Source of the DNA: Acaryochloris marina S15 | GTDB lineage: Bacteria > Cyanobacteriota > Cyanobacteriia > Thermosynechococcales > Thermosynechococcaceae | DNA: 32,000 bases | Assembly (NCBI RefSeq): GCF_018336915.1 | Contig: NZ_CP064923.1 | Span: forward strand, 3,840,001-3,872,000 | Direction of reading: 5' to 3' | In this document: piece after piece, positions 3,287 to 25,895 of the stretch | How positions within the stretch are numbered: the first letter of the stretch is position 1 | Layout of the letters: each line of letters opens with the position of its first letter | Notes under the pieces: generated by a model | The model's database searches: none | What the model saw: the letters and a program-made list of their open reading frames with translations, nothing else | Told to the model about the DNA's origin: nothing | Made by a program: the position numbers and the translations under genes

Positions 3287-4861
3287 CTATAGCCGCACGC
3301 GTTGCCAATTTTTTACTCCACCAAATCGATAGCGAGCAGGCCACTCCACATATTTCAGTAAATCCATCAGACTTGAGACATCTTCTGGCACAGCTATTCC
3401 TGATGTAATTCTTTGATAGGGACACTCTGGATTTTCATCATAGTTGGTGCCATTAAAGCCGTTCAAAAAATTCACATCCCGGTGATATAAATTGTTCTGG
3501 TCATTAGGAGGGGGACACTTTTTGCTCTTGAGCGCAAGAATAGCTTCCATCCATAACACTCCCTCAACATTCGTATTTCTCCCTCCTGGACAACCTGGGC
3601 CAGTAGTTAGCAATCTTAAGTCGTCAATCGGGAACCAGAGAAAGGCATTTTGAATACAGCTGCGGTCAAAGAGGTTAACTTGACTATTCCCTCTGGCCAA
3701 AATGCGTAAATCCCCTACTTGAGGGAGTTGATCATCCGTCCGAATATTGAGGATTTTGGCATTATCTCGCAGAGTAATCGCTAATTCTGGATCAGTACCC
3801 CCATAAATGACATCAATTTGGACAGGGCCTCCAGTGGTGTCAATGGTTAATACTTCATCGTTGTCTAAATCAATACTTTCGACATGATAGAGGGTTGGGG
3901 TCATACTACCGACCCCTTTTAAGGTCGTACTTGTTGTAATGCGGCCGAAGTTTGTTCCTTGAATGGTCGTCGGTAGCTTAGGAGGTAAGTTGCAAGCAAA
4001 AATTTTTCCTTCTACTGTATCGATCGGACTACCATCTGCATCAAAATCCTCCCCATCGGTAGACCAAATAGCATCCAAATAATCAGCACGACTGGCATCC
4101 TCTGGGGCAGCACTATTCGTGAGGGAAGAATTGGCTGAACCATCAGGATTGTAGTAGATATTCCCCTTACTCCCCAGAACCTCGCGCCCTCTTAGGGCCA
4201 GAGTCCCAGTCTTGACGGCACCATTCGTATTGCGGGAAGCGATAATACCTGGAAAATTGTCTAAATCCGGGGTCACATTAATCGTGATTATGATGCCTGT
4301 GGCCTGACCATTGGTGGTGGCTTCTACAAATAATGTGCCCTGTTGTTGTTTCGGATCATAGCGATAGGCCTTCAAGGAATAGGTGCCATTATCACCAATT
4401 GAACCGGAAAATTGGAAATTAGGTACCCCCCAGTTCATTTGCTGGTGGCAGGGTTCATTACTGGGGTTATAGCTGGTCCATTCATCAATGAGGGCAGTCT
4501 CTTCATCTCCACTATTAAAGCTTCCATCTGCACCTAAATAGGTTTTGCCCGTTTTGATATTGATCGTGTCGTAATTGCGGTTGAGCAAAATGGCGTTGTT
4601 GGGGTTCGTCAGTTGCGCCAAGGTTCTGGCCATTCCCCCTTCAGCTGTGGATAGACTTGCACCGGATTCTTTACGTTGCCAAGACGTGATGCGATCGCTT
4701 TGGGCAGTCATGAGCATTGTGAGTCCCAATACCACCATCACAAAGCCTAAACCCAAGGCCAGGGGTAATGCAAAGCCAGCCTGAACACCCCGACGATTTG
4801 CAGATTGTGTCTGCTGTAACCACCCACGAATAACAGCAGCGGCAAAGGGATTTATCGGCAT
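3287..4861 (-). CDS. Large PilX_N-like pseudopilin / type IV pilus minor-pilin-like protein (524 aa)
   Basis: The N-terminus RRGVQAGFALPLALGLGFVMVVLGLTMLMTAQSDR...STAEGGMA has the PilX N-terminal domain pattern (G then a hydrophobic helix then A..AE.G). The rest is a large Gly/Asn/Thr/Asp-rich domain, probably beta-rich. An AGAGGAA lies just 5' of the ATG. Confidence 0.65.
   Translation of the reverse strand: MPINPFAAAVIRGWLQQTQSANRRGVQAGFALPLALGLGFVMVVLGLTMLMTAQSDRITSWQRKESGASLSTAEGGMARTLAQLTNPNNAILLNRNYDTINIKTGKTYLGADGSFNSGDEETALIDEWTSYNPSNEPCHQQMNWGVPNFQFSGSIGDNGTYSLKAYRYDPKQQQGTLFVEATTNGQATGIIITINVTPDLDNFPGIIASRNTNGAVKTGTLALRGREVLGSKGNIYYNPDGSANSSLTNSAAPEDASRADYLDAIWSTDGEDFDADGSPIDTVEGKIFACNLPPKLPTTIQGTNFGRITTSTTLKGVGSMTPTLYHVESIDLDNDEVLTIDTTGGPVQIDVIYGGTDPELAITLRDNAKILNIRTDDQLPQVGDLRILARGNSQVNLFDRSCIQNAFLWFPIDDLRLLTTGPGCPGGRNTNVEGVLWMEAILALKSKKCPPPNDQNNLYHRDVNFLNGFNGTNYDENPECPYQRITSGIAVPEDVSSLMDLLKYVEWPARYRFGGVKNWQRVRL
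4691..4698. repeat. HIP1 octamer GCGATCGC
   Basis: Exact match read in the sequence. Confidence 0.95.
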
Positions 4862-14240: not shown

Positions 14241-16694
14241 ATGGTCCCAAAATTCCTTCAATTTATTCGTAACCACTACCGATGGATCTTCCTCAGTCTG
14301 ATCACTGTCACTCTATGTCTTTGCTGGGGCTTACTCGATTCGGTAAGGGGCCAACTCAAGCCTCTTCGAACAGAGGCAGCTCCTTCCTCAACTCTTCAAA
14401 TCTCGACTACAGACTTAGATCCCTATCGCCCAGTCGGCGAGTGGGTGGGACGGCTGATTCTACCGCCACAATCGGCGGATGACACAGATTGGGTCTGGTT
14501 TGAGGTTCACCATAGTCCCAATTCCGAGTTTGCCGGTCAAACAGTGCGATTGCAATGGCAGGATAATCCAGATGTCCAAGCCCGGATCAAACGGGTACAG
14601 CAGGATATCACACTCTCGGCAGAGGCTCACCAAAGCCTAAAGCAAGGCAATATTCACCCAAAGCGATTAGATGGACGACGACAGGTTGGACCGCTACAGT
14701 CCCTAGCAGGAGCAAGACCCACAGATGACCTACTCGTCAGATTGAAAGAGGTCCAAGTCGTCCCTGGCCCTCTTCCTCACCTCGACATTGCCGAAGATCC
14801 CGTACAGGTCGCTGGATTTAACTATGGACTCGTCAAAATCCTCGGTCCAGTCCCAACCTCTCAATCGGTTCCCAATCAATGCCCTGGCCCATCTCCTTGC
14901 CCCAGTGAATTGACTCAGGTTCGTCACTACAACCCCACCACTCAACGGTTTAATGGCCCAGAAGAAATCGTTCACATTCGTCAGGATCAGCCCAATTCAG
15001 CCGGTGTCTTTCAGTCCACTCCCAGGAAGTTAGCAGCATCCCCAGCCGGAAAAGCAGGCTGGTATATCTATGGCTCGCAGAATATGGAGGGGATATTTGA
15101 GGTCAATGGGATCGCACCTCGTTCTCTGTTCCAACTCCAGCCCGATCACCACTTCTCTAGCACTGGCGCCGGACTACACTACTTCAAACGCAAAGTTTGG
15201 CAACAAACGGCTCAACATAAGGGCAAACTCCAACGAGCCATGGTTGATAACCAGCAACGTCAACAACAAGCAGTCTTAGATCAGTGGCAGGAAGGAGATC
15301 AATCCCTAGTCGTACATCTCTTTGGCGGGATTGGTGGTAACAAAGCTGAACCCCAGGCGGTTATCGGTACTATCACGGGTCATTTTGGATATGGTATCGC
15401 GACTGTGATCAACGATCCCTTTACCGGGGAACGACAGTTTGATATTGAGTACCAACAGGTGTACGCCCACAACCCTGAGGGAATTGTAGCCGGACCCACC
15501 CATTGGTCAGAATATATGGGCCATCTCAACCGAGGATGGTTGGGGAGTCGGCCAGTATTGGACGTACTGGTCAAGTCTGAGGCCCTGACGCAGCCCTATG
15601 ACTTTGGCGAGATTGTTCTAGATCCCTTAACTGAGCTAAAAACTCAGCTCCAACTTATGGCGGCACGCTATCGAATGGGTGATGGCACAGGGTCTGCTTT
15701 GGTCACCCCGGCTAAGTCCTGTGTCCAAGATTCCAGCCAAGCAGTTTACCAAACCATTCGGCGAATCCAATATCAGGTGCAGATGTCTCCAGCCATTCAA
15801 ACTTGGTTGGCAGATCACCCACAAGCTCCTCAAACGCTTCGGTTCCAAGAATTAAAGACTTTAGGGAATGCCCTGGAGAAAGAGCTGGTTCCGCTAGGGA
15901 TTGTCCGCAGGGATTGGCAACAAAATGCCCAGGTTGCAGCAGGTATCGCTTTACCAGGAACATTTCGCCACTCAGACGATTTCTTAACTCAAATTCTCAG
16001 CTGGCGAACGCTGATTCCTCGGGTGGCCCAAGATCAAATTATTCGTATTTTCCTCAAGCAAGGCACCCCGCTGTGGTTTCTCAACACCAATCAAGTGGGA
16101 GGTTGGGATGCAGATATCAGCCCCCTAGCCCCCACAGAATTATTTGGGAAGTGGCCGATCGTTTCCTTTTCCTTCTCTCGACTAGTGGAAGGGACCACAA
16201 CGTTCCCGACTCCAATGGGATGGCTCGTCTCAGGGTTGGTTTTAGGAGGATATGGTCTCTTTGCTGTAGCTTGGGGCAGAAAGGTCGGGTTTCTGGCCCC
16301 ACCCAAATTTGCGGTTCATGCCCTATCCGTTCAAGTGAAAATTTGGGTCGGCAGTTTGATCATGCCAGCCCTAGTCGAAGAATTACTCTTTCGCTGCCTG
16401 TTGATTCCCCACCCCCAAGAAGGGGTGTGGTGGGTTACCCTGCTGCTTTGGTCAGGGTTCAGCTTAATCCTCTTTGTGCTATATCATCCCCTCAATGCCC
16501 GCACCCTCTACAAAGTAGGTAATCCAACCTTCTTTAATCCCAGATTTTTAACCTTAGCCACTGTGCTGGGTATGGCCTGTACTTGCACCTATTTATTCAC
16601 AGGCTCAATTTGGCCAGGTACTATCATCCACTGGCTAGTTGTTGCGATTTGGTTGCTGTATTTAGGTGGACAGGAACGCCTGAGCAAAGCCTAG
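14241..16694 (+). CDS. 817-aa membrane protein: unknown ~650-aa N-terminal domain fused to a C-terminal CPBP (CAAX/Abi) intramembrane protease domain
   Basis: An N-terminal TM segment (IFLSLITVTLCLCWGLL) is present. The C-terminal TM bundle carries CPBP motifs EELLFRCLL (EExxxR), FVLYHP (FxxxH) and IIHWLV (HxxxN/D-like). I recognised no family for residues ~40-650. Confidence 0.85.
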   Translation: MVPKFLQFIRNHYRWIFLSLITVTLCLCWGLLDSVRGQLKPLRTEAAPSSTLQISTTDLDPYRPVGEWVGRLILPPQSADDTDWVWFEVHHSPNSEFAGQTVRLQWQDNPDVQARIKRVQQDITLSAEAHQSLKQGNIHPKRLDGRRQVGPLQSLAGARPTDDLLVRLKEVQVVPGPLPHLDIAEDPVQVAGFNYGLVKILGPVPTSQSVPNQCPGPSPCPSELTQVRHYNPTTQRFNGPEEIVHIRQDQPNSAGVFQSTPRKLAASPAGKAGWYIYGSQNMEGIFEVNGIAPRSLFQLQPDHHFSSTGAGLHYFKRKVWQQTAQHKGKLQRAMVDNQQRQQQAVLDQWQEGDQSLVVHLFGGIGGNKAEPQAVIGTITGHFGYGIATVINDPFTGERQFDIEYQQVYAHNPEGIVAGPTHWSEYMGHLNRGWLGSRPVLDVLVKSEALTQPYDFGEIVLDPLTELKTQLQLMAARYRMGDGTGSALVTPAKSCVQDSSQAVYQTIRRIQYQVQMSPAIQTWLADHPQAPQTLRFQELKTLGNALEKELVPLGIVRRDWQQNAQVAAGIALPGTFRHSDDFLTQILSWRTLIPRVAQDQIIRIFLKQGTPLWFLNTNQVGGWDADISPLAPTELFGKWPIVSFSFSRLVEGTTTFPTPMGWLVSGLVLGGYGLFAVAWGRKVGFLAPPKFAVHALSVQVKIWVGSLIMPALVEELLFRCLLIPHPQEGVWWVTLLLWSGFSLILFVLYHPLNARTLYKVGNPTFFNPRFLTLATVLGMACTCTYLFTGSIWPGTIIHWLVVAIWLLYLGGQERLSKA

Positions 16695-16713
16695 GACAGG
16701 CAAAAACAGGTGC

Positions 16714-17691
16714 CTAGTCGTAACACCAGGTATCAAAGGATCGGCTGGGCGGTGCCTGATTCGATCGCACCGGTCGATGAAAGATGGATTTAGTATTAGT
16801 TGGCTTCTTGCGGGTGGTGGCTAATGCTGAGGACTTTTGCGTTTTTCTAGAGGTTGAACTGGTTTGCAGCTCAGCTACTTGTTTTTGCAACCGATCATTC
16901 TCTTTTGCTAATCGCACTGCATCCTGGGTGGTTTGCTCCAGCTTCTCTTTAATCGCATCTGTTTGATGGGTCGATTTCTGCAACGCTGTCAGGGCCGTTT
17001 TCTGCTCAGCCAGCTGTGACTCCAATTGAGCCACCTTCTTCTGCAAAGAGGTTTCTTTGGTTTGAGCTGCCTTTAAATCTTTAGTTAGGGCACTGACTTT
17101 CACTTTTAAATCAGTGTTAATGGATTGAGCACTACTGGCTGCGGAGCTGCTTGCGGTTGAGGCAGGTTTTGCTGCTGCTTTCTGTGCCGTAGAGGCGGCA
17201 GGCTTAGCCTTCTTTGCTGCCGCCGTCTTTGTGGCTGTTGTTTTCCGACTAGAAGATCGGCTGGACGTTGCCTTTTTAGCAGTAGAAGATTTAGTCGTTG
17301 ATTTTTTAGCTGCGGGTGCAGCAGCTTTGGTTGTTGACGTTGACTTCTTAGCTGCTGGTGAAGCAGCTTTGGTTGTTGACGTTGACTTCTTAGCTGCTGG
17401 TGAAGCAGTCTTAGTAGTGGAAGCAGCCTTAGGGGTCGATTTCTTAGCTGCGGGTGCAGCCTTAGTAGCCCCGGCAGTCTTTTTTTCCGTAGTTTTTTTG
17501 GCAGTGGTCGATTTAGCCGTACTTTTCTGGGCTGTCGTTGTCTTTTTCGCTGCAGCTTTTTTCGCTGATGTGGCTTTCTTTTGGGTCGTTGACGCGGCTG
17601 GTTTTGCACCTGCGCCATCTTTTTGATCAGGGGTCGCAGTTTTAGTTGCTTCTTCCCGTAATAAATCTGACAAACTTTTCTTCGTAGCCAT
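16714..17691 (-). CDS. 325-aa disordered K/A/T/S-rich, Q-rich coiled-coil protein with a C-terminal Trp; candidate ParA partner (McdB-like)
   Basis: The ATG at 17689-17691 overlaps the parA-like TAA (17691-17693) as TAATG. Domain order: [15 protein letters not shown], then ~170 aa of AAKK/STTKAA low complexity, then a heptad-like Q/K/E/L segment (about 16864-17121), then a basic tail ending SFDTWCYD. Two other frames are also open because of the repeats. This frame was chosen for the coupling and the coiled coil. Confidence 0.75.
   Translation of the reverse strand: MATKKSLSDLLREEATKTATPDQKDGAGAKPAASTTQKKATSAKKAAAKKTTTAQKSTAKSTTAKKTTEKKTAGATKAAPAAKKSTPKAASTTKTASPAAKKSTSTTKAASPAAKKSTSTTKAAAPAAKKSTTKSSTAKKATSSRSSSRKTTATKTAAAKKAKPAASTAQKAAAKPASTASSSAASSAQSINTDLKVKVSALTKDLKAAQTKETSLQKKVAQLESQLAEQKTALTALQKSTHQTDAIKEKLEQTTQDAVRLAKENDRLQKQVAELQTSSTSRKTQKSSALATTRKKPTNTKSIFHRPVRSNQAPPSRSFDTWCYD
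17321..17404. repeat. Perfect 2 x 42-bp tandem repeat (encodes SPAAKKSTSTTKAA twice), flanked by degenerate copies
   Basis: 17321-17362 and 17363-17404 are identical (gcagctttggttgttgacgttgacttcttagctgctggtgaa). The unit at 17279-17320 is a diverged copy. Confidence 0.95.
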
Positions 17692-18401
17692 TAACTGTCC
17701 CAATCCCGCTTAATTTCATCAACAACGCGGCAATAATCTGCTTTTGCCTCTTTACTATATTTCCCTTTCCATTGTGTAATCGGCTGTCCTTCCAAAGCTG
17801 CCCGTTCATGCGCCTTATAACTACGTACAAAGGCATGAAAAGCCGGAATGCCTAACTCCATCAAAGTGTTTTGAGCATCCAATGCTTCTCGCAAGCTTCG
17901 AGGATCGACCCGAGTTAGTAATACCCGATGAGCCACTCCCGATGGTTTGACTAATGTCCGCACCGTTTCAATTAGAACGGCAATTTCCATTGGGGCAGGA
18001 GGCGTAGGGAGCACTAAATAGTCAACCACAGGAATGACCATTTTCAAAATCTCTGACTCTAGACCTGGTGGCGTATCTACGACGACCAGCTCTTGCTTAC
18101 TGGAACGGCGCAAATTTTTCAATTCTTTCGCGCTAGCCCCAGATTGGACTTGGAATTTAAGGGAATTTGTATCACGCTGGGTCCACCAAGTTGCGGACCC
18201 TTGCGGATCGGCGTCAATTAGGAGAACTTGATGAGCTTCTGCAAATACTGCTGTGAGATTAACAGCCGTGGTGGTTTTACCAACACCACCTTTGCCATTG
18301 AGGACGGCGACAACCTTGGTTTTTGAAGATTTAGAAGGCAACTTGGGCACCGCTAATGATTGCCAATAGTAAGCAGGAGGCTCTGACTTTGCAACTTGCA
18401 A
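17691..18401 (-). CDS. ParA/MinD-family deviant Walker-A ATPase (small, no HTH domain); McdA-like candidate
   Basis: Motifs present: [16 protein letters not shown] (KGGxxGKT with the signature Lys), [14 protein letters not shown] and VVVDTPPG. The start is uncertain: TTG at 18401 in the ORF track, with no ATG before the Walker A. Confidence 0.88.
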
Positions 18402-18508: not shown

Positions 18509-18524
18509 ATAGACAATAATCTAT
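18509..18524. promoter_or_regulatory. Palindrome ATAGA-N6-TCTAT, copy 1 (upstream of the LysR gene)
   Basis: ATAGACAATAATCTAT lies 57 nt upstream of the LysR ATG. A near-identical copy is at 21095-21110. Confidence 0.45.
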
Positions 18525-18580: not shown

Positions 18581-19495
18581 ATGCAGCCAACTCTACATCA
18601 ACTGAAAGTGTTTGAAACTGCTGCCCGCCATGGCAGCTTTACTCGCGCCGCTGAAGAACTTTACCTGACACAACCGACCGTATCAATTCAGATCAAGCAG
18701 CTGTCCAAGACGGTTGGTTTCCCTTTATTCGAGAAGTTGGGAAAACAGCTTTACTTAACAGAAGTTGGCAATCGGTTATTTAGCACCTGTCAATCCATTT
18801 TTGAAGAACTTGATCAATTCGAGATGATTGTCAGTGATTTGCAGGGGATGACCCAAGGCAAGTTACATCTTGCTACAGTCACTACCTGTAAGTATTTTGT
18901 CCCTCGTTTACTGGGTAATTTTTGTGACCAATATCCTGGCATTGATATTTCTCTGAAAATCACTAACCATCTCCAGCTGGAAAAGCGGATGATGGAAAAC
19001 CGAGATGACCTCTACATCCTCAGTCATCCTCCCCAACATATGGATCTCAAAGTTCAGCCTGTCATTAAGAATCCACTTGTAGTGGTAGCTCCACCCAACC
19101 ATCCCCTCGTGGGTCAGAAGAATATCGATATTTCTGCTCTCAATGATGAACGCTTTATTATGCGGGAGTCAGGCTCGGGAACTCGCCATGCTGTTCAGGC
19201 TCTATTCAACAAACATAAAGTCAATGTTGAAATCAAACTAGAACTGGGCAGTAATGAAGCGATCAAACAAGCGATTGCAGGAGGATTGGGAATCTCAGTG
19301 CTATCGCGCCACTCCCTTAATGGTCGAGAATATACTGACCTAGCCATTCTGGATGTCGAACATTTTCCCATTGAGCAGCAATGGTCGGTTGCCTATTTAT
19401 CGGGTAAACATCTCTCTGTTGTGGCCGAAACCTTCCTACACTATTTAGTCTCGGTCACTGATCATGCTGAAATGCCTTGGATACACTTCAAATAA
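18581..19495 (+). CDS. LysR-family transcriptional regulator, CbbR/CmpR-like
   Basis: The N-terminal wHTH MQPTLHQLKVFETAARHGSFTRAAEELYLTQPTVSIQIKQL and later blocks (RESGSGTR, LGSNEAIKQAIAGGLGISVLS) resemble the CbbR/CmpR subgroup as I remember it. It is divergent from the parA-like gene. Confidence 0.9.
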   Translation: MQPTLHQLKVFETAARHGSFTRAAEELYLTQPTVSIQIKQLSKTVGFPLFEKLGKQLYLTEVGNRLFSTCQSIFEELDQFEMIVSDLQGMTQGKLHLATVTTCKYFVPRLLGNFCDQYPGIDISLKITNHLQLEKRMMENRDDLYILSHPPQHMDLKVQPVIKNPLVVVAPPNHPLVGQKNIDISALNDERFIMRESGSGTRHAVQALFNKHKVNVEIKLELGSNEAIKQAIAGGLGISVLSRHSLNGREYTDLAILDVEHFPIEQQWSVAYLSGKHLSVVAETFLHYLVSVTDHAEMPWIHFK

Positions 19496-19657: not shown

Positions 19658-20338
19658 CTAGTTCACCCCATTTACCTGCTGGCTTAAATCATTAACACTT
19701 TGGGACATGATGGCTAAAGCTTGCTGAAGGCTTTCTACATCAGCCCCGGCGCCATTAGGTAGTGCGGGGATCGTAGAGGGTGAAACCGGTAAGGGAATCC
19801 CAATCCCTCCGGTAAAGATAGAATCAACCTCCATTAGACTAGCTCCCGTAGAAGTGGGAACTGCTGTGGAGAGCTGATCAAATTCAGTTTCGCCAGCGTT
19901 GGGCAGAAAAGTACCACGATGTTCAGGGGTAAAGAGGAGTTGGCGATTCAGCAACGCTGGAAAAGGGAATCGTTGCCGGACAAAAACTTCGACATAACCC
20001 CGAAACTCAACAGTGTCGACATTGGGGTCGAGGGTGAGAATATCAGGCTGCAAAATGATTAAGCCTGTGTCCTTGGCTCTGAGTCCAAAGTCATAACAAC
20101 TATCAGCATCCAGAGTGCCAAAATCGTTAGAACCACCGGTATCTCGAATTACAATTAGCTTACTGGTATCGAGAGCTGGGGTTGTTGCATTAAATTTCAA
20201 TCGCAATAACACATCAAAGTTATGGGGATTAGAAACTGTTAGAAAATATCCCTGCAAAATTTTCCGGTTGGAGTTAGATATATTTCCTTCTGCAGGTGTA
20301 ATATCTTTAAGGAGAAGTTCAAAGGTTGAAAGTAGCAT
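19658..20338 (-). CDS. Hypothetical protein (226 aa from ATG), no family recognised
   Basis: This is a long ORF with normal composition for the window. The ATG at 20336-20338 is preceded by AAGGAC, and the ORF-track start at 20368 is a TTG. The product starts MLLSTFELLLKDITPAEGN and has a helical Q-rich C-terminus. Confidence 0.6.
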   Translation of the reverse strand: MLLSTFELLLKDITPAEGNISNSNRKILQGYFLTVSNPHNFDVLLRLKFNATTPALDTSKLIVIRDTGGSNDFGTLDADSCYDFGLRAKDTGLIILQPDILTLDPNVDTVEFRGYVEVFVRQRFPFPALLNRQLLFTPEHRGTFLPNAGETEFDQLSTAVPTSTGASLMEVDSIFTGGIGIPLPVSPSTIPALPNGAGADVESLQQALAIMSQSVNDLSQQVNGVN

Positions 20339-21094
20339 AGAAATGTCCTTTGTGTGATGGTTGATCAATAAATTTCAGTGAGGATCATTGAATGTATTTA
20401 TGAGTAACGATTACTGAGATAAACAGAAGAAAAATGTTCTTTTCAAGTAAAGATCTCAAATTTATCTTCCATAGCCTTTTTAAGGCAAAATAACAAAGCA
20501 GATAGCTTGTTAGTGCCATTGAGAGTTCCTAGGATACTTGAGCATAAAAGTTAGAGGCTAAGCTCTAAACATATGCAGCTTCAATGCCTGACACCTAAAT
20601 TGACTTTTGAAATCTACTAGTGTAGTCATCTTGTTTAGATAGTAGAAGCTCAATGAATTCACCCTGAAAAGGCCATTAAAGAGAGAAGATTTTGATTTGT
20701 TTTAACCTGTCTTCAGTTCGTTAATCTGAAATCAATATAATCCAAAAAAACTTAGATAAAAGTGATTATCTTCAATATTTTGTGTGACATAAATCATTGA
20801 AAATTTCTTCTTTGTATAAAATATTTTTTATGCTTATAAATAATATTATATGCTTTTTCTGTAGTATTTTTGTTGCAGGAAAGATGCAATAAAAACAAGT
20901 CCAGTATGATTCTAATTGGGTCGCATCTATAGGCTAAGTAATATAGAAATATTTTTAAAATTCGTACCTTTAAAAACTACTGTGTAGAAATCAATGGCCA
21001 TCAATACAGGCGAGAATGATACGGAATTCAGCTCTAGGTAAAGGTTTCTATATGGTTTGATTTCGATTTAAATCTCCAATCTTCTGACTTGAAG

Positions 21095-21110
21095 ATAGAG
21101 ACTAATCTAT
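21095..21110. promoter_or_regulatory. Palindrome ATAGA-N6-TCTAT, copy 2 (upstream of ppx/gppA)
   Basis: ATAGAGACTAATCTAT lies 84 nt upstream of the ppx ATG. With flanks it matches copy 1 at 17 of 20 positions (ATAGA.A.TAATCTATT.CA). Confidence 0.45.
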
Positions 21111-21193: not shown

Positions 21194-22792
21194 ATGCAAA
21201 CCATTGCCGCTATTGATGTGGGAACCAATTCGATCCACATGGTTGTGGTGAAAGTTAACCCTGAAATTCCAGCATTCAATATTATTGATACTGAGAAAAG
21301 TACCGTTCGCCTAGGGGAAGGCAGCAAAGATACTGGGAAGCTGCATCCGGATGCGATCGCAAGAGCAATTGCCGCCTTGCGCAGATGTCAAGAAGTTGCC
21401 GCAGCCTGCAAAGTCGAACAGATCCAAGCGGTTGCCACCAGTGCTGTCCGGGAAGCCCTCAATGGTCGGACCTTTATTCGTGCCGTTGAGTCCGAACTCG
21501 GGCTTAAAATCAATGTCATATCCGGTCCAGAAGAAGCCCGGCGAATTTACCTCGGGGTCTTGTCCGGTATTGAATTTAATAACAAGCCCCACGTCATGAT
21601 TGATATTGGGGGTGGATCAACCGAGCTCATTTTAGGGAATGGTCAAGATCCGCGCTCCCTCAGCAGTACCAAGGTAGGAGCGGTACGGCTGACTGAGGAA
21701 TATATCACCACCGATCCGGTCAGTACTAGCGAATTTGAGCGGTTACAGGCCTATGTTCGAGGAATGTTGGAATGGCCGGTTGAAGAGTTGCGTTCCCATC
21801 TCTCTCCCGATGAAGTGCCAACCCTTATTGGCACCTCCGGAACAATTGAAAGCATTCTCAAACTGCATGCCTGCGAGGTTATGGGAGCTTGTCCCACCTC
21901 TCTTCATGGCCACGTCCTCACCCTTGATGACCTGAACGACCTCATCCACAAGCTGCGAAAGCTCAATTACGACGAACGCTGCAAAATGCCTGGGATGACG
22001 GAGCGGCGAGCAGAAATTATTTTAGCCGGAGCTGTAATTTTGGCTGAAACAATGACCCTGCTGCACTTAGATTCCATTACCACCTGTGAACGCGCTCTAC
22101 GAGAAGGCATCGTGGTGGACTGGATGATGAAGCAAGGATTGATTGAAGATCGACTCCGCTACCAGGGTTCCGTGCGAGAACGCAGCGTCATGAACTTGGC
22201 CCATCAGTACCATGTGGAGTTATCAACTGCTGAGCGAATCGCTGATTTTGCCGTCGCTTTATTTGATCAAACCCAAGGCTCTCTCCATCATTGGGGAATA
22301 GACGAGCGTCATTCCCTGTGGGCAGCCGCTATTTTGCATAACTGCGGGCATTACATCAGCCATTCCGCCCATCATAAACATTCCTACTACTTAATCCGTC
22401 ATGGCGGCTTGTTGGGCTATACCGATGCCGAAGTCGAGATTATTGCCAACTTAGCCCGGTATCACCGCAAAGGAGCTCCCAAAAAGAAGCATGAGAACTA
22501 TCAGAACTTGGTGAATAAAGCCCAACGTCAGATCGTCGACCAGCTCAGTGCCATTCTTAAGTTAGCGGTCGCCTTGGATCGGCGGCAGATAGGTGCGATT
22601 GAATCCCTACATTGTGAAATTGATTCAGATACCATTACCCTCCATCTCCAAGCGAGTCAAACCGACGATGACTGTGCTTTAGAGCTATGGAGTTTAGAGA
22701 TGAAAAAAGCTTGCTTTGAATCCGAATTTGATATGACTCTGGTCGCTCAACTGGCTGAATCTGCTCCCAGCCCTGATTTACAGCTAGCCTGA
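21194..22792 (+). CDS. ppx: Ppx/GppA-family exopolyphosphatase / guanosine pentaphosphate phosphohydrolase with a C-terminal HD domain
   Basis: ASKHA phosphate motifs AAIDVGTNSIHMVV and DIGGGSTEL are present, with a C-terminal HD-type region HNCGHYISHSAHHKHSYYLI. Confidence 0.92.
   Translation: MQTIAAIDVGTNSIHMVVVKVNPEIPAFNIIDTEKSTVRLGEGSKDTGKLHPDAIARAIAALRRCQEVAAACKVEQIQAVATSAVREALNGRTFIRAVESELGLKINVISGPEEARRIYLGVLSGIEFNNKPHVMIDIGGGSTELILGNGQDPRSLSSTKVGAVRLTEEYITTDPVSTSEFERLQAYVRGMLEWPVEELRSHLSPDEVPTLIGTSGTIESILKLHACEVMGACPTSLHGHVLTLDDLNDLIHKLRKLNYDERCKMPGMTERRAEIILAGAVILAETMTLLHLDSITTCERALREGIVVDWMMKQGLIEDRLRYQGSVRERSVMNLAHQYHVELSTAERIADFAVALFDQTQGSLHHWGIDERHSLWAAAILHNCGHYISHSAHHKHSYYLIRHGGLLGYTDAEVEIIANLARYHRKGAPKKKHENYQNLVNKAQRQIVDQLSAILKLAVALDRRQIGAIESLHCEIDSDTITLHLQASQTDDDCALELWSLEMKKACFESEFDMTLVAQLAESAPSPDLQLA
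21353..21360. repeat. HIP1 octamer GCGATCGC
   Basis: Exact match read in the sequence. Confidence 0.95.
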
Positions 22793-25229: not shown

Positions 25230-25895
25230 ATGATGCCAAAACAATTGAAAGTCGGGCTATGGTTCCTTATTGGCTTAGAAATAGGGCTTGCCTTGGCCTA
25301 CCTCATCACTATTTGGCGGCAGCAGTCTGTCCCAGTTTGGTTGGATTGGGATGGATTGAGATCAGTGCCATCACTAATGCAGGCCGCTACTTTATTTGCA
25401 ATCGGCATTTTAGCGTTGCTCCTGCTCCTCTTTCGGCAGCGAATTCAACGGCCCGTTTCTAGATTTCTCCCCTTAGCTCTTGCATCCCTTTGCCTGTATG
25501 GAGGCATTGATGAACTGACGAAGCTCCATCTGCATCTGAATCAATACAACTGGAAAGGCATCTATGTGGCTATTTTGATTGCCATTCCGTTGATCTGTTG
25601 GCGGGATCTAGCTCGGCTATGGCGGGAGCATCGTTCAATTGTGTTGTGGGTATTTTTGGGACTCGGTATTTTCTTGCTCGGTGGATTTGGTGCAGAACTG
25701 ATCAAGGAGCATTTGTATACAGGAGTCTCTCCTGAAGCCACCTTCACCTTGGCAGGGCAAACTATAAATCTGCTGTTTTGGGTTGAGCATCTTAGGGTCA
25801 CTGTTGAAGAGTTTGGTGAATTGTTGGGCGAAACAATCATCCTCTTTGGGGTTGCTCAATTTGTCCTGAAAAGCTTATCCCCACAAGTGACTTAA
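25230..25895 (+). CDS. Polytopic membrane protein, hypothetical
   Basis: The ORF is 221 aa with about 6 hydrophobic segments. No family was recognised. Confidence 0.65.
   Translation: MMPKQLKVGLWFLIGLEIGLALAYLITIWRQQSVPVWLDWDGLRSVPSLMQAATLFAIGILALLLLLFRQRIQRPVSRFLPLALASLCLYGGIDELTKLHLHLNQYNWKGIYVAILIAIPLICWRDLARLWREHRSIVLWVFLGLGIFLLGGFGAELIKEHLYTGVSPEATFTLAGQTINLLFWVEHLRVTVEEFGELLGETIILFGVAQFVLKSLSPQVT

Follow-up and report, generated by a model that had tools for sequence, protein, structure and literature searches.

A ParA-type ATPase and its polycationic partner on the Acaryochloris marina chromosome: a probable Type 2 McdAB carboxysome-positioning system

What cargo does a ParA-type ATPase position when the gene that follows it encodes a protein made largely of lysine, alanine, threonine, and serine? 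The question is raised by two adjacent genes at positions 16714–18401 of a 32,000-nucleotide stretch of DNA, hereafter the window, from Acaryochloris marina S15 (contig NZ_CP064923.1, positions 3,840,001 to 3,872,000). A first interpretation from the letters alone, here called the sequence-only reading, had compared the pair with McdA and McdB, which space carboxysomes in cyanobacteria, and had left room for a novel cargo. Our analysis indicates that the two genes very probably form a Type 2 McdAB carboxysome-positioning system on the Acaryochloris chromosome. The comparison with an ATPase and its McdB-type adaptor has stood: the ATPase is close to a named Type 2 McdA, the partner has the published features of McdB, and an orthologous pair lies among rbc and ccm genes in a related cyanobacterium. 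Nothing that we found points to a different cargo.

The minus strand carries both genes, a point that the sequence-only reading had left unstated. The first, mcdA, encodes a ParA-family ATPase with a 216-aa core (17691..18341), as started by NCBI at the TTG at 18341; this form is identical to WP_212666325.1, a protein of Acaryochloris sp. 'Moss Beach'. The second, mcdB, encodes a full-length adaptor of 325 aa (16714..17691), delimited by its open reading frame (ORF), a family alignment, a profile search, and an AlphaFold2 (AF2) model. The two genes meet in a TAATG stop/start overlap with one common base, as had been noticed earlier. Read directly from the sequence, this junction occupies 17689..17693 on the minus strand (CATTA on the plus strand), with the TAA at 17691-17693, the ATG at 17689-17691, and base 17691 belonging to both. 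The identical junction AGTTAATG is found in two related loci, L083 and L085, which are described below. It should be mentioned that the longest ORF of the ATPase runs from a TTG at 18401 (17691..18401, minus strand) and encodes 236 aa. The candidate N-terminal extension of 20 aa (18342..18401, minus strand) is an open frame with an AGGAG 4 nt upstream of its TTG, and because of this AGGAG the 236-aa form may be a real Acaryochloris product, although NCBI gives 216 aa. The frame of the extension is open in four Acaryochloris-type loci and other gene callers choose the 236-aa form; the McdA homologues of other genera begin at the position of the 216-aa start.

In the ATPase, Pfam recognizes only P-loop domains (CbiA, AAA_31, and ParA) and no helix-turn-helix (HTH) domain, which agrees with the earlier description of a ParA-type gene with the motif KGGVGKTT and no HTH. 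Its score against the plasmid model ParA_partition of NCBIfam is 111 bits, under the cutoff of 180 bits. At E<=1e-10, a database search gave 2478 relatives; the best 120 of these are 62-97% identical to the ATPase, and every organism-named protein among these 120 is cyanobacterial. In a gap-free alignment over 94% of the length, the ATPase is 67% identical to Glr2463 of Gloeobacter violaceus, which was named a Type 2 McdA in MacCready 2020 (PMC7182216). According to the same paper, a Type 2 McdA has a signature lysine, two extra threonines after Walker A, and a double tryptophan flanking Walker A', and is 202-253 aa long. The window protein has a deviant Walker A that contains this lysine (KGGxxKT, here KGGVGKT), the two added threonines after the Walker A threonine (KGGVGKTTT), and the double tryptophan next to Walker A' (DPQGSATWW), with W52 and W53 invariant in our alignment A1. 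Its length of 216 (or 236) aa, with no long internal extension, falls inside the published range. A short insertion and conserved phenylalanine, glutamate, and proline residues are also described after the double tryptophan of Type 2 McdA; with the positions taken from the family consensus, F63 of the window protein is conserved.

Placement in a ParA phylogeny, one of the checks that the sequence-only reading had proposed, gave a consistent picture. In a neighbor-joining tree, the ATPase groups with those of other Acaryochloris, next with that of L085, and next with Glr2463, all inside a chromosomal cyanobacterial clade of Type 2 McdA proteins and apart from the partition ParAs, and the outgroups of this clade are plasmid ParAs. 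The chromosomal clade also carries a conserved C-terminal motif, E-[IL]-x-R-D-W, encoded at 17691-17730 (minus strand) of the window and visible in alignment A1. This RDW motif is absent from the ParAs of Thermus and Nostoc plasmids and may be a better discriminator of McdA than the extra threonines or the double tryptophan. Judged by its sequence, this protein belongs to Type 2 McdA, for which ATP-dependent, non-specific binding to the nucleoid and an McdB-stimulated ATPase activity are predicted.

The partner had been described as a protein of four parts, all of which are real. The first is the N-terminal peptide, aa 1-17 (17641..17691, minus strand), defined by the family alignment and predicted by AF2 to be helical at aa 7-15. 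It agrees with the family consensus M-x-K-K-R-L-S-D-L-L-R-E-E-A, and residues D9, L11, E13, and E14 do not vary among 43 homologues. By analogy with related systems, this peptide is likely to contact and stimulate McdA. The second part is a polycationic, disordered tract rich in lysine, alanine, threonine, and serine (the K/A/T/S tract), aa 18-182 or, by composition, to aa 190 (17146..17640, minus strand), recognized from its composition and from the predicted local distance difference test score (pLDDT). Between aa 18 and 190 it contains 51 A, 37 K, 35 T, and 28 S, and it has 39 basic and 3 acidic residues, a net charge of +36, and not a single I, L, V, M, F, W, or Y. A tandem repeat of 42 bp (14 aa), present 2.7 times, lies inside it at 17296-17408. 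The whole partner is 18% K, 21% A, 17% T, and 13% S.

The third part is a central coiled-coil helix, aa 183-279 (16855..17145, minus strand), supported by AF2, by heptad bias, and by identity to Glr2464, the published McdB of G. violaceus. The checks for disorder and coiled coils proposed earlier were run: with an alignment of 43 sequences, AF2 gives, besides the short helix at 7-15, a single uninterrupted helix of 97 residues at 183-279 (pLDDT 94-97) and leaves the remainder without structure (pLDDT below ~55), such that ~70% of the residues are non-helical. In the long helix, I, L, V, or M occupies 43% of the a/d heptad positions versus 20% overall. Glutamine is modestly enriched in the coiled coil (12/89 residues, or 13%, versus 6% in the whole protein), and QDAVRLAKENDRL in this segment aligns with the family motif E-A-K-x-x-A-L-Q-L-A-x-A-N. 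The fourth part is a basic, disordered C-terminal tail, aa 280-325 with the stop codon (16714..16854, minus strand), read from the sequence; it has a net charge of +8 and ends in SFDTWCYD, with Trp322 of 325 fourth from the end (codon 16726-16728).

According to MacCready 2020 (PMC7182216), a Type 2 McdB is encoded by the ORF after mcdA and has a highly charged N-terminus with the positive residues first, a glutamine-containing central coiled coil, and disordered polar extensions; in beta-McdBs there is a tryptophan within the last four residues and the length is 132-394 aa (PMC7182216, PMC11321042). The partner has every one of these features, including the position right after mcdA and an N-terminus in which positive residues stand ahead of negative ones. 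The published dimensions are 93±25 aa for the coiled coil, 56±16 aa for the C-terminal extension, and 60±23 aa for the N-terminal extension (PMC7182216), and the 97-aa helix and 46-aa C-terminal extension of the partner are to be compared with the first two. The sequence-only reading had put the partner at about twice the size of the Synechococcus elongatus McdB and had considered a distinct variant. The size does not lie outside the family, as 325 aa is inside the beta-McdB range and the S. elongatus protein used for comparison is of the rare Type 1; only the length of the N-terminal extension is unusual, not the total size.

Conservation of the gene pair was examined in 32 cyanobacterial genome loci and 80 metagenome loci with a homologous ATPase. 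An ORF with both the N-peptide and the C-terminal tryptophan directly follows the ATPase in 27 of the 32 genome loci and in 38 of the 80 metagenome loci, and a stop/start overlap is present in 22 of the 27, which is more than chance would give; the sequence-only reading had proposed this check of the pair and its junction. The N-terminus in the 27 loci reads M-x-[KR]-K-[RQ]-L-[ST]-D-L-[LI]-x-E-E, and all of them have a tryptophan among the four final residues (endings WLLD/WVD/WFD/WYD, or WLL/WML). A homology search with the whole 325-aa partner gave no match; low-complexity words probably saturated the candidates, and a trimmed family alignment was used in its place to recover the McdB family. 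The resulting family profile found 414 cluster representatives at E<=1e-10 among 1.84 billion proteins, and 209 of the 210 family members examined have a tryptophan in the last four residues. Without its tract, the partner can be aligned over its whole length with 14 members of the family, including E-A-K-x-x-A-L-Q-L-A-x-A-N-x-x-L and the terminal D-F-x-x-N-T-W-L-Y-D. Compared with Glr2464, it agrees at 11/18 positions of the N-peptide and is 33% identical in the coiled coil (E 7e-4). Profile search and comparison with named proteins, both suggested earlier, thus place the two proteins with Type 2.

The window pair resembles the Type 2 systems of G. violaceus (Glr2463/Glr2464) and Gloeobacter kilaueensis (GKIL_0670/0671) in the RDW motif, the gene order, and the stop/start overlap, and, in the partner, in the N-peptide, the central coiled coil, the disordered extensions, and the tryptophan in the last four residues. 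It differs from them in the N-terminal extension, of about 180-193 aa, in the pI (isoelectric point) of 10.5 versus a median of 5.6, and in its neighborhood, for it adjoins an NdhR/CcmR-like regulator and not ccmK3/K4 or a ccm operon. The genus Acaryochloris is not mentioned in the main text of MacCready 2020 (PMC7182216).

The link with carboxysomes comes from the relatives of this pair. In L085, the closest non-Acaryochloris relative found, with an McdA 75% identical to that of the window, mcdAB lies between rbcL-rbcX-rbcS-ccmK, the last a bacterial microcompartment (BMC) gene, and genes like ccmO/N/M, which encode a BMC protein of 245 aa, a protein of 207 aa, and a protein of 666 aa with RuBisCO-small repeats. 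The McdB of L085 (214 aa) starts with MASKKNLSDLLREEV, follows a TAATG junction (AGTTAATGG), and ends in KSFDTWCYD. Two CcmK genes are found 2-4 kb downstream of mcdAB in 8 Nostocales loci, an arrangement that agrees with the published association of mcdAB with ccmK3/K4 (PMC7182216). Clustering with carboxysome genes is seen in about 31% of the published Type 2 McdAB pairs and is supportive but not defining (PMC7182216). The C-terminal tryptophan is needed for association of McdB with carboxysomes in S. elongatus and Halothiobacillus neapolitanus (PMC11321042), and from the C-terminal motif common to the window partner and the L085 McdB we infer that the former docks on carboxysome shell proteins. 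Taken together, orthology and motif identity argue strongly for the carboxysome assignment.

On the contrary, several points weigh against this assignment. The 32-kb window has no BMC, RuBisCO, or ccm genes, and its NdhR-like neighbor is the only local carboxysome link. The glutamate and proline of the consensus after the double tryptophan (F-D-V-x-x-E-T-x-P) are glycine and alanine in the window protein and in A. marina. The extra threonines and the double tryptophan also occur in plasmid ParAs of Thermus and Nostoc that are 52-62% identical to the ATPase; for this reason, the ATPase alone is not diagnostic of McdA, and it would be the C-terminal module of the partner, not the published McdA signatures alone, that separates McdA from the plasmid ParA group. 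The pI of 10.5 gives the partner a charge opposite to that of most family members. In the literature consulted, we found no biochemical dissection of any Type 2 McdAB, and the mechanism set out below is transferred from the Type 1 system of S. elongatus and the alpha system of H. neapolitanus.

How might such a Type 2 McdAB pair act? All the steps are derived by homology from systems studied in organisms other than Acaryochloris (PMC7182216, PMC11321042, PMC10554743). ATP-bound McdA dimers would cover the nucleoid non-specifically, while McdB, made from the same transcript by way of the TAATG overlap, would dimerize or oligomerize through its central coiled coil and dock on beta-carboxysome shells with its tryptophan-containing C-terminal tail. 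McdB would then contact McdA through its short N-terminal helix (KK…D..REE) and stimulate ATP hydrolysis, by which McdA would be stripped off the DNA near each carboxysome. The resulting zones of McdA depletion would drive a Brownian-ratchet movement, leading to even spacing of the carboxysomes and to their inheritance by both daughter cells. The K/A/T/S tract (~165-173 aa) would be a lineage-specific enlargement of the disordered N-terminal linker, and, by analogy with better-studied McdBs, it most likely tunes the condensation, solubility, or electrostatic interactions of McdB.

How unusual is this tract? The N-terminal extension of the partner is about 180-193 aa, according to the coiled-coil start chosen, compared with the published 60±23 aa; 19 further loci in which an anchor could be identified gave a median of 63 (range 48-87). 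What exceeds these values is the K/A/T/S tract, enlarged within the Acaryochloris lineage. The McdB of L085 has 214 aa, a non-basic linker, and a pI of 8.6; that of L083, whose McdA is 88% identical to the window protein, has 266 aa and a pI of 9.9; and the window partner, with 325 aa and a pI of 10.5, is matched by that of A. marina MBIC11017, with 326 aa, a K/A/T/S tract, and a pI of 10.6. Between the tracts of the window and MBIC11017, 43 codon changes are synonymous and 40 non-synonymous, and the insertions and deletions are all multiples of 3. In other words, the sequence of the tract drifts while its composition is retained. The 178 full-length family members surveyed have a median length of 224 aa, with 3 of at least 300 aa, and a median pI of 5.6, with 25 over pI 9 and one over 10.0; this survey of length and pI is probably biased against low-complexity members. 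The only comparable other locus was found in the marine metagenome-assembled genome Cyanobacteria bacterium P01_F01_bin.150 (L020:6639 onward), whose McdB of 566 aa, with a tract of ~350 aa and a pI of 10.6, goes beyond the published range of 132-394 aa and appears, from its sequence, to be an independent second polycationic expansion.

Positive charge in this region is not foreign to the family. [quoted passage not shown] A linker of +36 is an extreme of an already known variable and no new class. The McdB of S. elongatus is not a DNA binder (PMC7182216). The tract might give the window McdB a second, direct affinity for polyanions, either nucleoid DNA or polyphosphate (polyP) granules, a tentative idea that we consider rather doubtful.

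A rival explanation is that the pair belongs to the same family but has been repurposed, with the tract turning McdB into an adaptor whose cargo or matrix is polyanionic, such as polyP granules or the nucleoid, instead of or besides carboxysomes. The tract, with its net charge of +36 and its lack of hydrophobic residues, does resemble histone-H1-like tails such as that of AlgP, a protein that localizes to polyP granules and aids their spacing in Pseudomonas aeruginosa (PMC9239181); in S. elongatus, polyP granules are found in association with carboxysomes (PMC13556221); and a ppx gene lies 2.8 kb away with a conserved NdhR-type box upstream. The likeness to AlgP, however, is that of a long, low-complexity, polycationic tract rich in lysine and alanine and is compositional only: we detected no homology to AlgP, H1, or Hc1 at the sequence level, AlgP is not the partner of a ParA, and the window tract is rich in threonine and serine and lies inside an McdB. 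Moreover, the link between polyP and carboxysomes in S. elongatus is independent of McdB (PMC13556221), the tract is an insertion in an otherwise complete McdB, and at its C-terminus this McdB has exactly the carboxysome-binding motif found in the ortholog of the rbc/ccm locus L085. A repurposed adaptor is on this balance improbable, and carboxysome positioning by a Type 2 McdAB pair is retained.

Less probable again, and in our opinion very improbable, is that the genes are a DNA-partition module, in which an integrated plasmid-type or secondary chromosome-segregation ParA works with a lysine-rich partner as a non-canonical centromere binder. The idea is not without foundation. A tblastn search of PLSDB found ParAs 60-62% identical to the ATPase on Thermus plasmids of 19-25 kb and 52% identical on Nostoc plasmids, and these are its immediate outgroups. 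In two such systems, on a Thermus plasmid (NZ_AP025598.1, pTthSNM1-1c; L086:3019-4001) and on the Nostoc plasmid pNOS3756_2 (L087:3013-4684), the partners begin with McdB-type peptides, VKRKRLAELVREEA and MAKARRRLSDLVQEE, that overlap the stop codon of the ATPase. The plasmid systems share with the window pair 52-62% identity in the ATPase, the extra threonines and double tryptophan, the N-peptide of the partner, and the overlap, and DNA binding by a lysine-rich tract is possible. Nevertheless, the plasmid ATPases have no RDW motif, which the window protein has, and the plasmid partners are short or acidic and end in a common domain of ~50 aa (LRPDQLDALTALARRLN…TENTLIRWAVDLLLE), with no terminal tryptophan and no long coiled coil, whereas the window partner has a coiled coil and a tryptophan tail. 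We read the ~50-aa domain as ribbon-helix-helix (RHH), although a search for this fold in the plasmid partners gave no match in Pfam, NCBIfam, or the PDB. About a dozen hot-spring metagenome loci have the same class of short partner without a tryptophan. The window genes are not plasmid-borne but are found on a chromosome contig of 5.88 Mb, in an order conserved across Acaryochloris. The sequence-only reading had named a nearby ParB and a non-conserved downstream ORF as findings that would speak against it; no ParB, HTH, or RHH gene is present as an ATPase partner in the 32-kb window, and the downstream ORF is conserved. Partition of a plasmid or chromosome was rejected on the grounds that the partner has no centromere-binding domain in Pfam or NCBIfam, that AF2 predicts a single long helix, and that there is no ParB.

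The shared N-peptide allows some speculation about origins. Sequence comparison suggests that Type 2 McdAB and the plasmid systems are probably of common ancestry, the ATPase-coupling peptide having been kept and the cargo module exchanged. In other words, the plasmid partners suggest that Type 2 McdAB arose by a swap of cargo modules. In the parts of MacCready 2020 (PMC7182216) available to us, a plasmid origin is proposed for Type 1 only. The adaptor scaffold would also accept DNA-binding modules, as the plasmid systems fuse the N-peptide to a domain that we read as DNA-binding.

Type 1 McdAB of S. elongatus (Synpcc7942_1833/1834) is likewise a nucleoid-bound ParA-type ATPase with a disordered, coiled-coil adaptor that has an invariant C-terminal tryptophan. 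Its McdA differs in having SGGQGKT, with no signature lysine, and a long internal extension, and its McdB has the opposite order of N-terminal charges, a C-terminal coiled coil, and an IDR of only +3. The McdA-like structure 6NOO in the PDB matches the window ATPase at only E 2.5e-7. Assignment to Type 1 was rejected, since the window proteins have a Walker A of KGGVGKT, no mid-protein extension, and a coiled coil followed by a tail of 46 aa.

A further question is whether the long mcdB is made at all. The source NCBI annotation has only a hypothetical protein of 129 aa from an internal GTG (HRE53_03940, P0172), which omits the McdA-coupling peptide and the K/A/T/S tract, and calls of 126 aa and 111 aa (P0185, P0223) are found in related Acaryochloris genomes. 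The full-length sequence of 325 aa is absent from a collection of 15 billion proteins. In A. marina MBIC11017, the full protein of 326 aa is called together with a gene of 167 aa on the opposite strand (L082:6716-7219), which is probably spurious. Neither Pfam nor NCBIfam returned a family model or a DNA-binding domain for the partner, giving only sub-threshold coiled-coil noise, and mcdB is labeled hypothetical because no Pfam or NCBIfam model exists for the McdB family. The least credible of the alternatives is that the NCBI model is right and that only the last 129 aa are made below an untranslated, low-complexity ORF: although PGAP calls the short form, other callers have short forms in relatives, and long shadow ORFs exist in frames of the tract other than that of mcdB, the ATG at 17691 opens a peptide with the four residues invariant in the family, the frame is kept through multiple-of-3 indels and 43 synonymous changes, five related loci retain full-length ORFs of 214-326 aa, and the truncated product would have no McdA-coupling peptide. 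The truncated gene model was rejected on these grounds. The shadow ORFs in the DNA of the tract lie at 17106-17618 (minus strand, 170 aa) and 17231-17626 (plus strand, 131 aa).

Upstream of mcdA and divergent from it lies a gene for a LysR-type regulator (18581..19495, plus strand), considered here as context only and identified from the Pfam domains HTH_1 and LysR_substrate and from a PDB match. The sequence-only reading had called it a CbbR/CmpR-type regulator. Its LysR family is confirmed by Pfam, but its closest relation is to NdhR/CcmR and not to CmpR: the best PDB match, 5Y2V, is NdhR/CcmR of Synechocystis (E 2e-127), which is much closer than CmpR (2e-70). In UniRef, the regulator of A. 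marina is named RbcR; the comparison here is with NdhR/CcmR and CmpR. The mcdA/LysR intergenic region contains a box (18509..18524, no strand assigned) that is a perfect match to the NdhR consensus ATAG-N8-CTAT (PMC13249358), of which 0.29 matches are expected per window. The distance from this NdhR/CcmR-type box, which is upstream of both genes, to the start codon is 57 bp for LysR (ATG) and 108 or 168 bp for mcdA, according to the candidate start chosen; its half-sites are kept in four Acaryochloris-type loci (L082:5819, L001:5819, L083:3622/L084), while the spacer and flanks vary. In L083/L084, the box is inside the annotated LysR ORF of 327 aa, whose start call is probably too far upstream. 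The contextual support from this neighbor had been described as weak; the link to the CO2-concentrating mechanism stands, but with a conserved NdhR-type box it is somewhat stronger than that. Because NdhR autoregulates, the box may serve the LysR gene only. Its position suggests, as a hypothesis, that mcdAB is controlled through this candidate site and that its expression is tied to inorganic-carbon status. In one other genus, the LysR gene is 4 kb from mcdAB.

A second ATAG-N8-CTAT box is present at 21095-21110, ~84 bp upstream of the exopolyphosphatase gene ppx/gppA (21194-22792), and is conserved in A. marina (L082:3264), which hints that polyphosphate turnover may perhaps belong to an NdhR-type regulon. 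Between the LysR gene and ppx lies an ORF of 236 aa (19658-20368, minus strand), the counterpart of which in A. marina is a gene of 226 aa; with two others, at 3287-4861 (minus strand, 524 aa) and 25230-25895 (plus strand, 221 aa), it is one of three sizeable ORFs with no Pfam match. On the other side of the pair, the stop codon of mcdB is 19 bp from that of a convergent gene (14241-16694) for a membrane protease of 817 aa, Rce1-like (CPBP), and a weak terminator-like hairpin followed by TGTTTTT (16709-16730, minus strand) overlaps the mcdB stop codon. Across Acaryochloris, the genes are kept in the order LysR-mcdA-mcdB-CPBP protease.

With this analysis, a function is assigned to two genes labeled "ParA family protein" and, in truncated form, "hypothetical protein", and the model of the second gene is corrected. 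Carbon sensing and carboxysome positioning may be linked, as the conserved box next to mcdA suggests. If the tract does have an affinity of its own for polyanions, the adaptor itself, besides McdA, would tether carboxysomes to the nucleoid or to polyP in Acaryochloris and a few marine relatives, such as the organism of L020, and would be a hybrid of a ParA adaptor and a nucleoid-associated protein. Whether or not this is so, the charge range of McdB is pushed here to an extreme, with an IDR of +36 versus +3 in S. elongatus, and the Acaryochloris pair offers a natural test case for the effects of linker charge on condensation, nucleoid contact, and carboxysome spacing.

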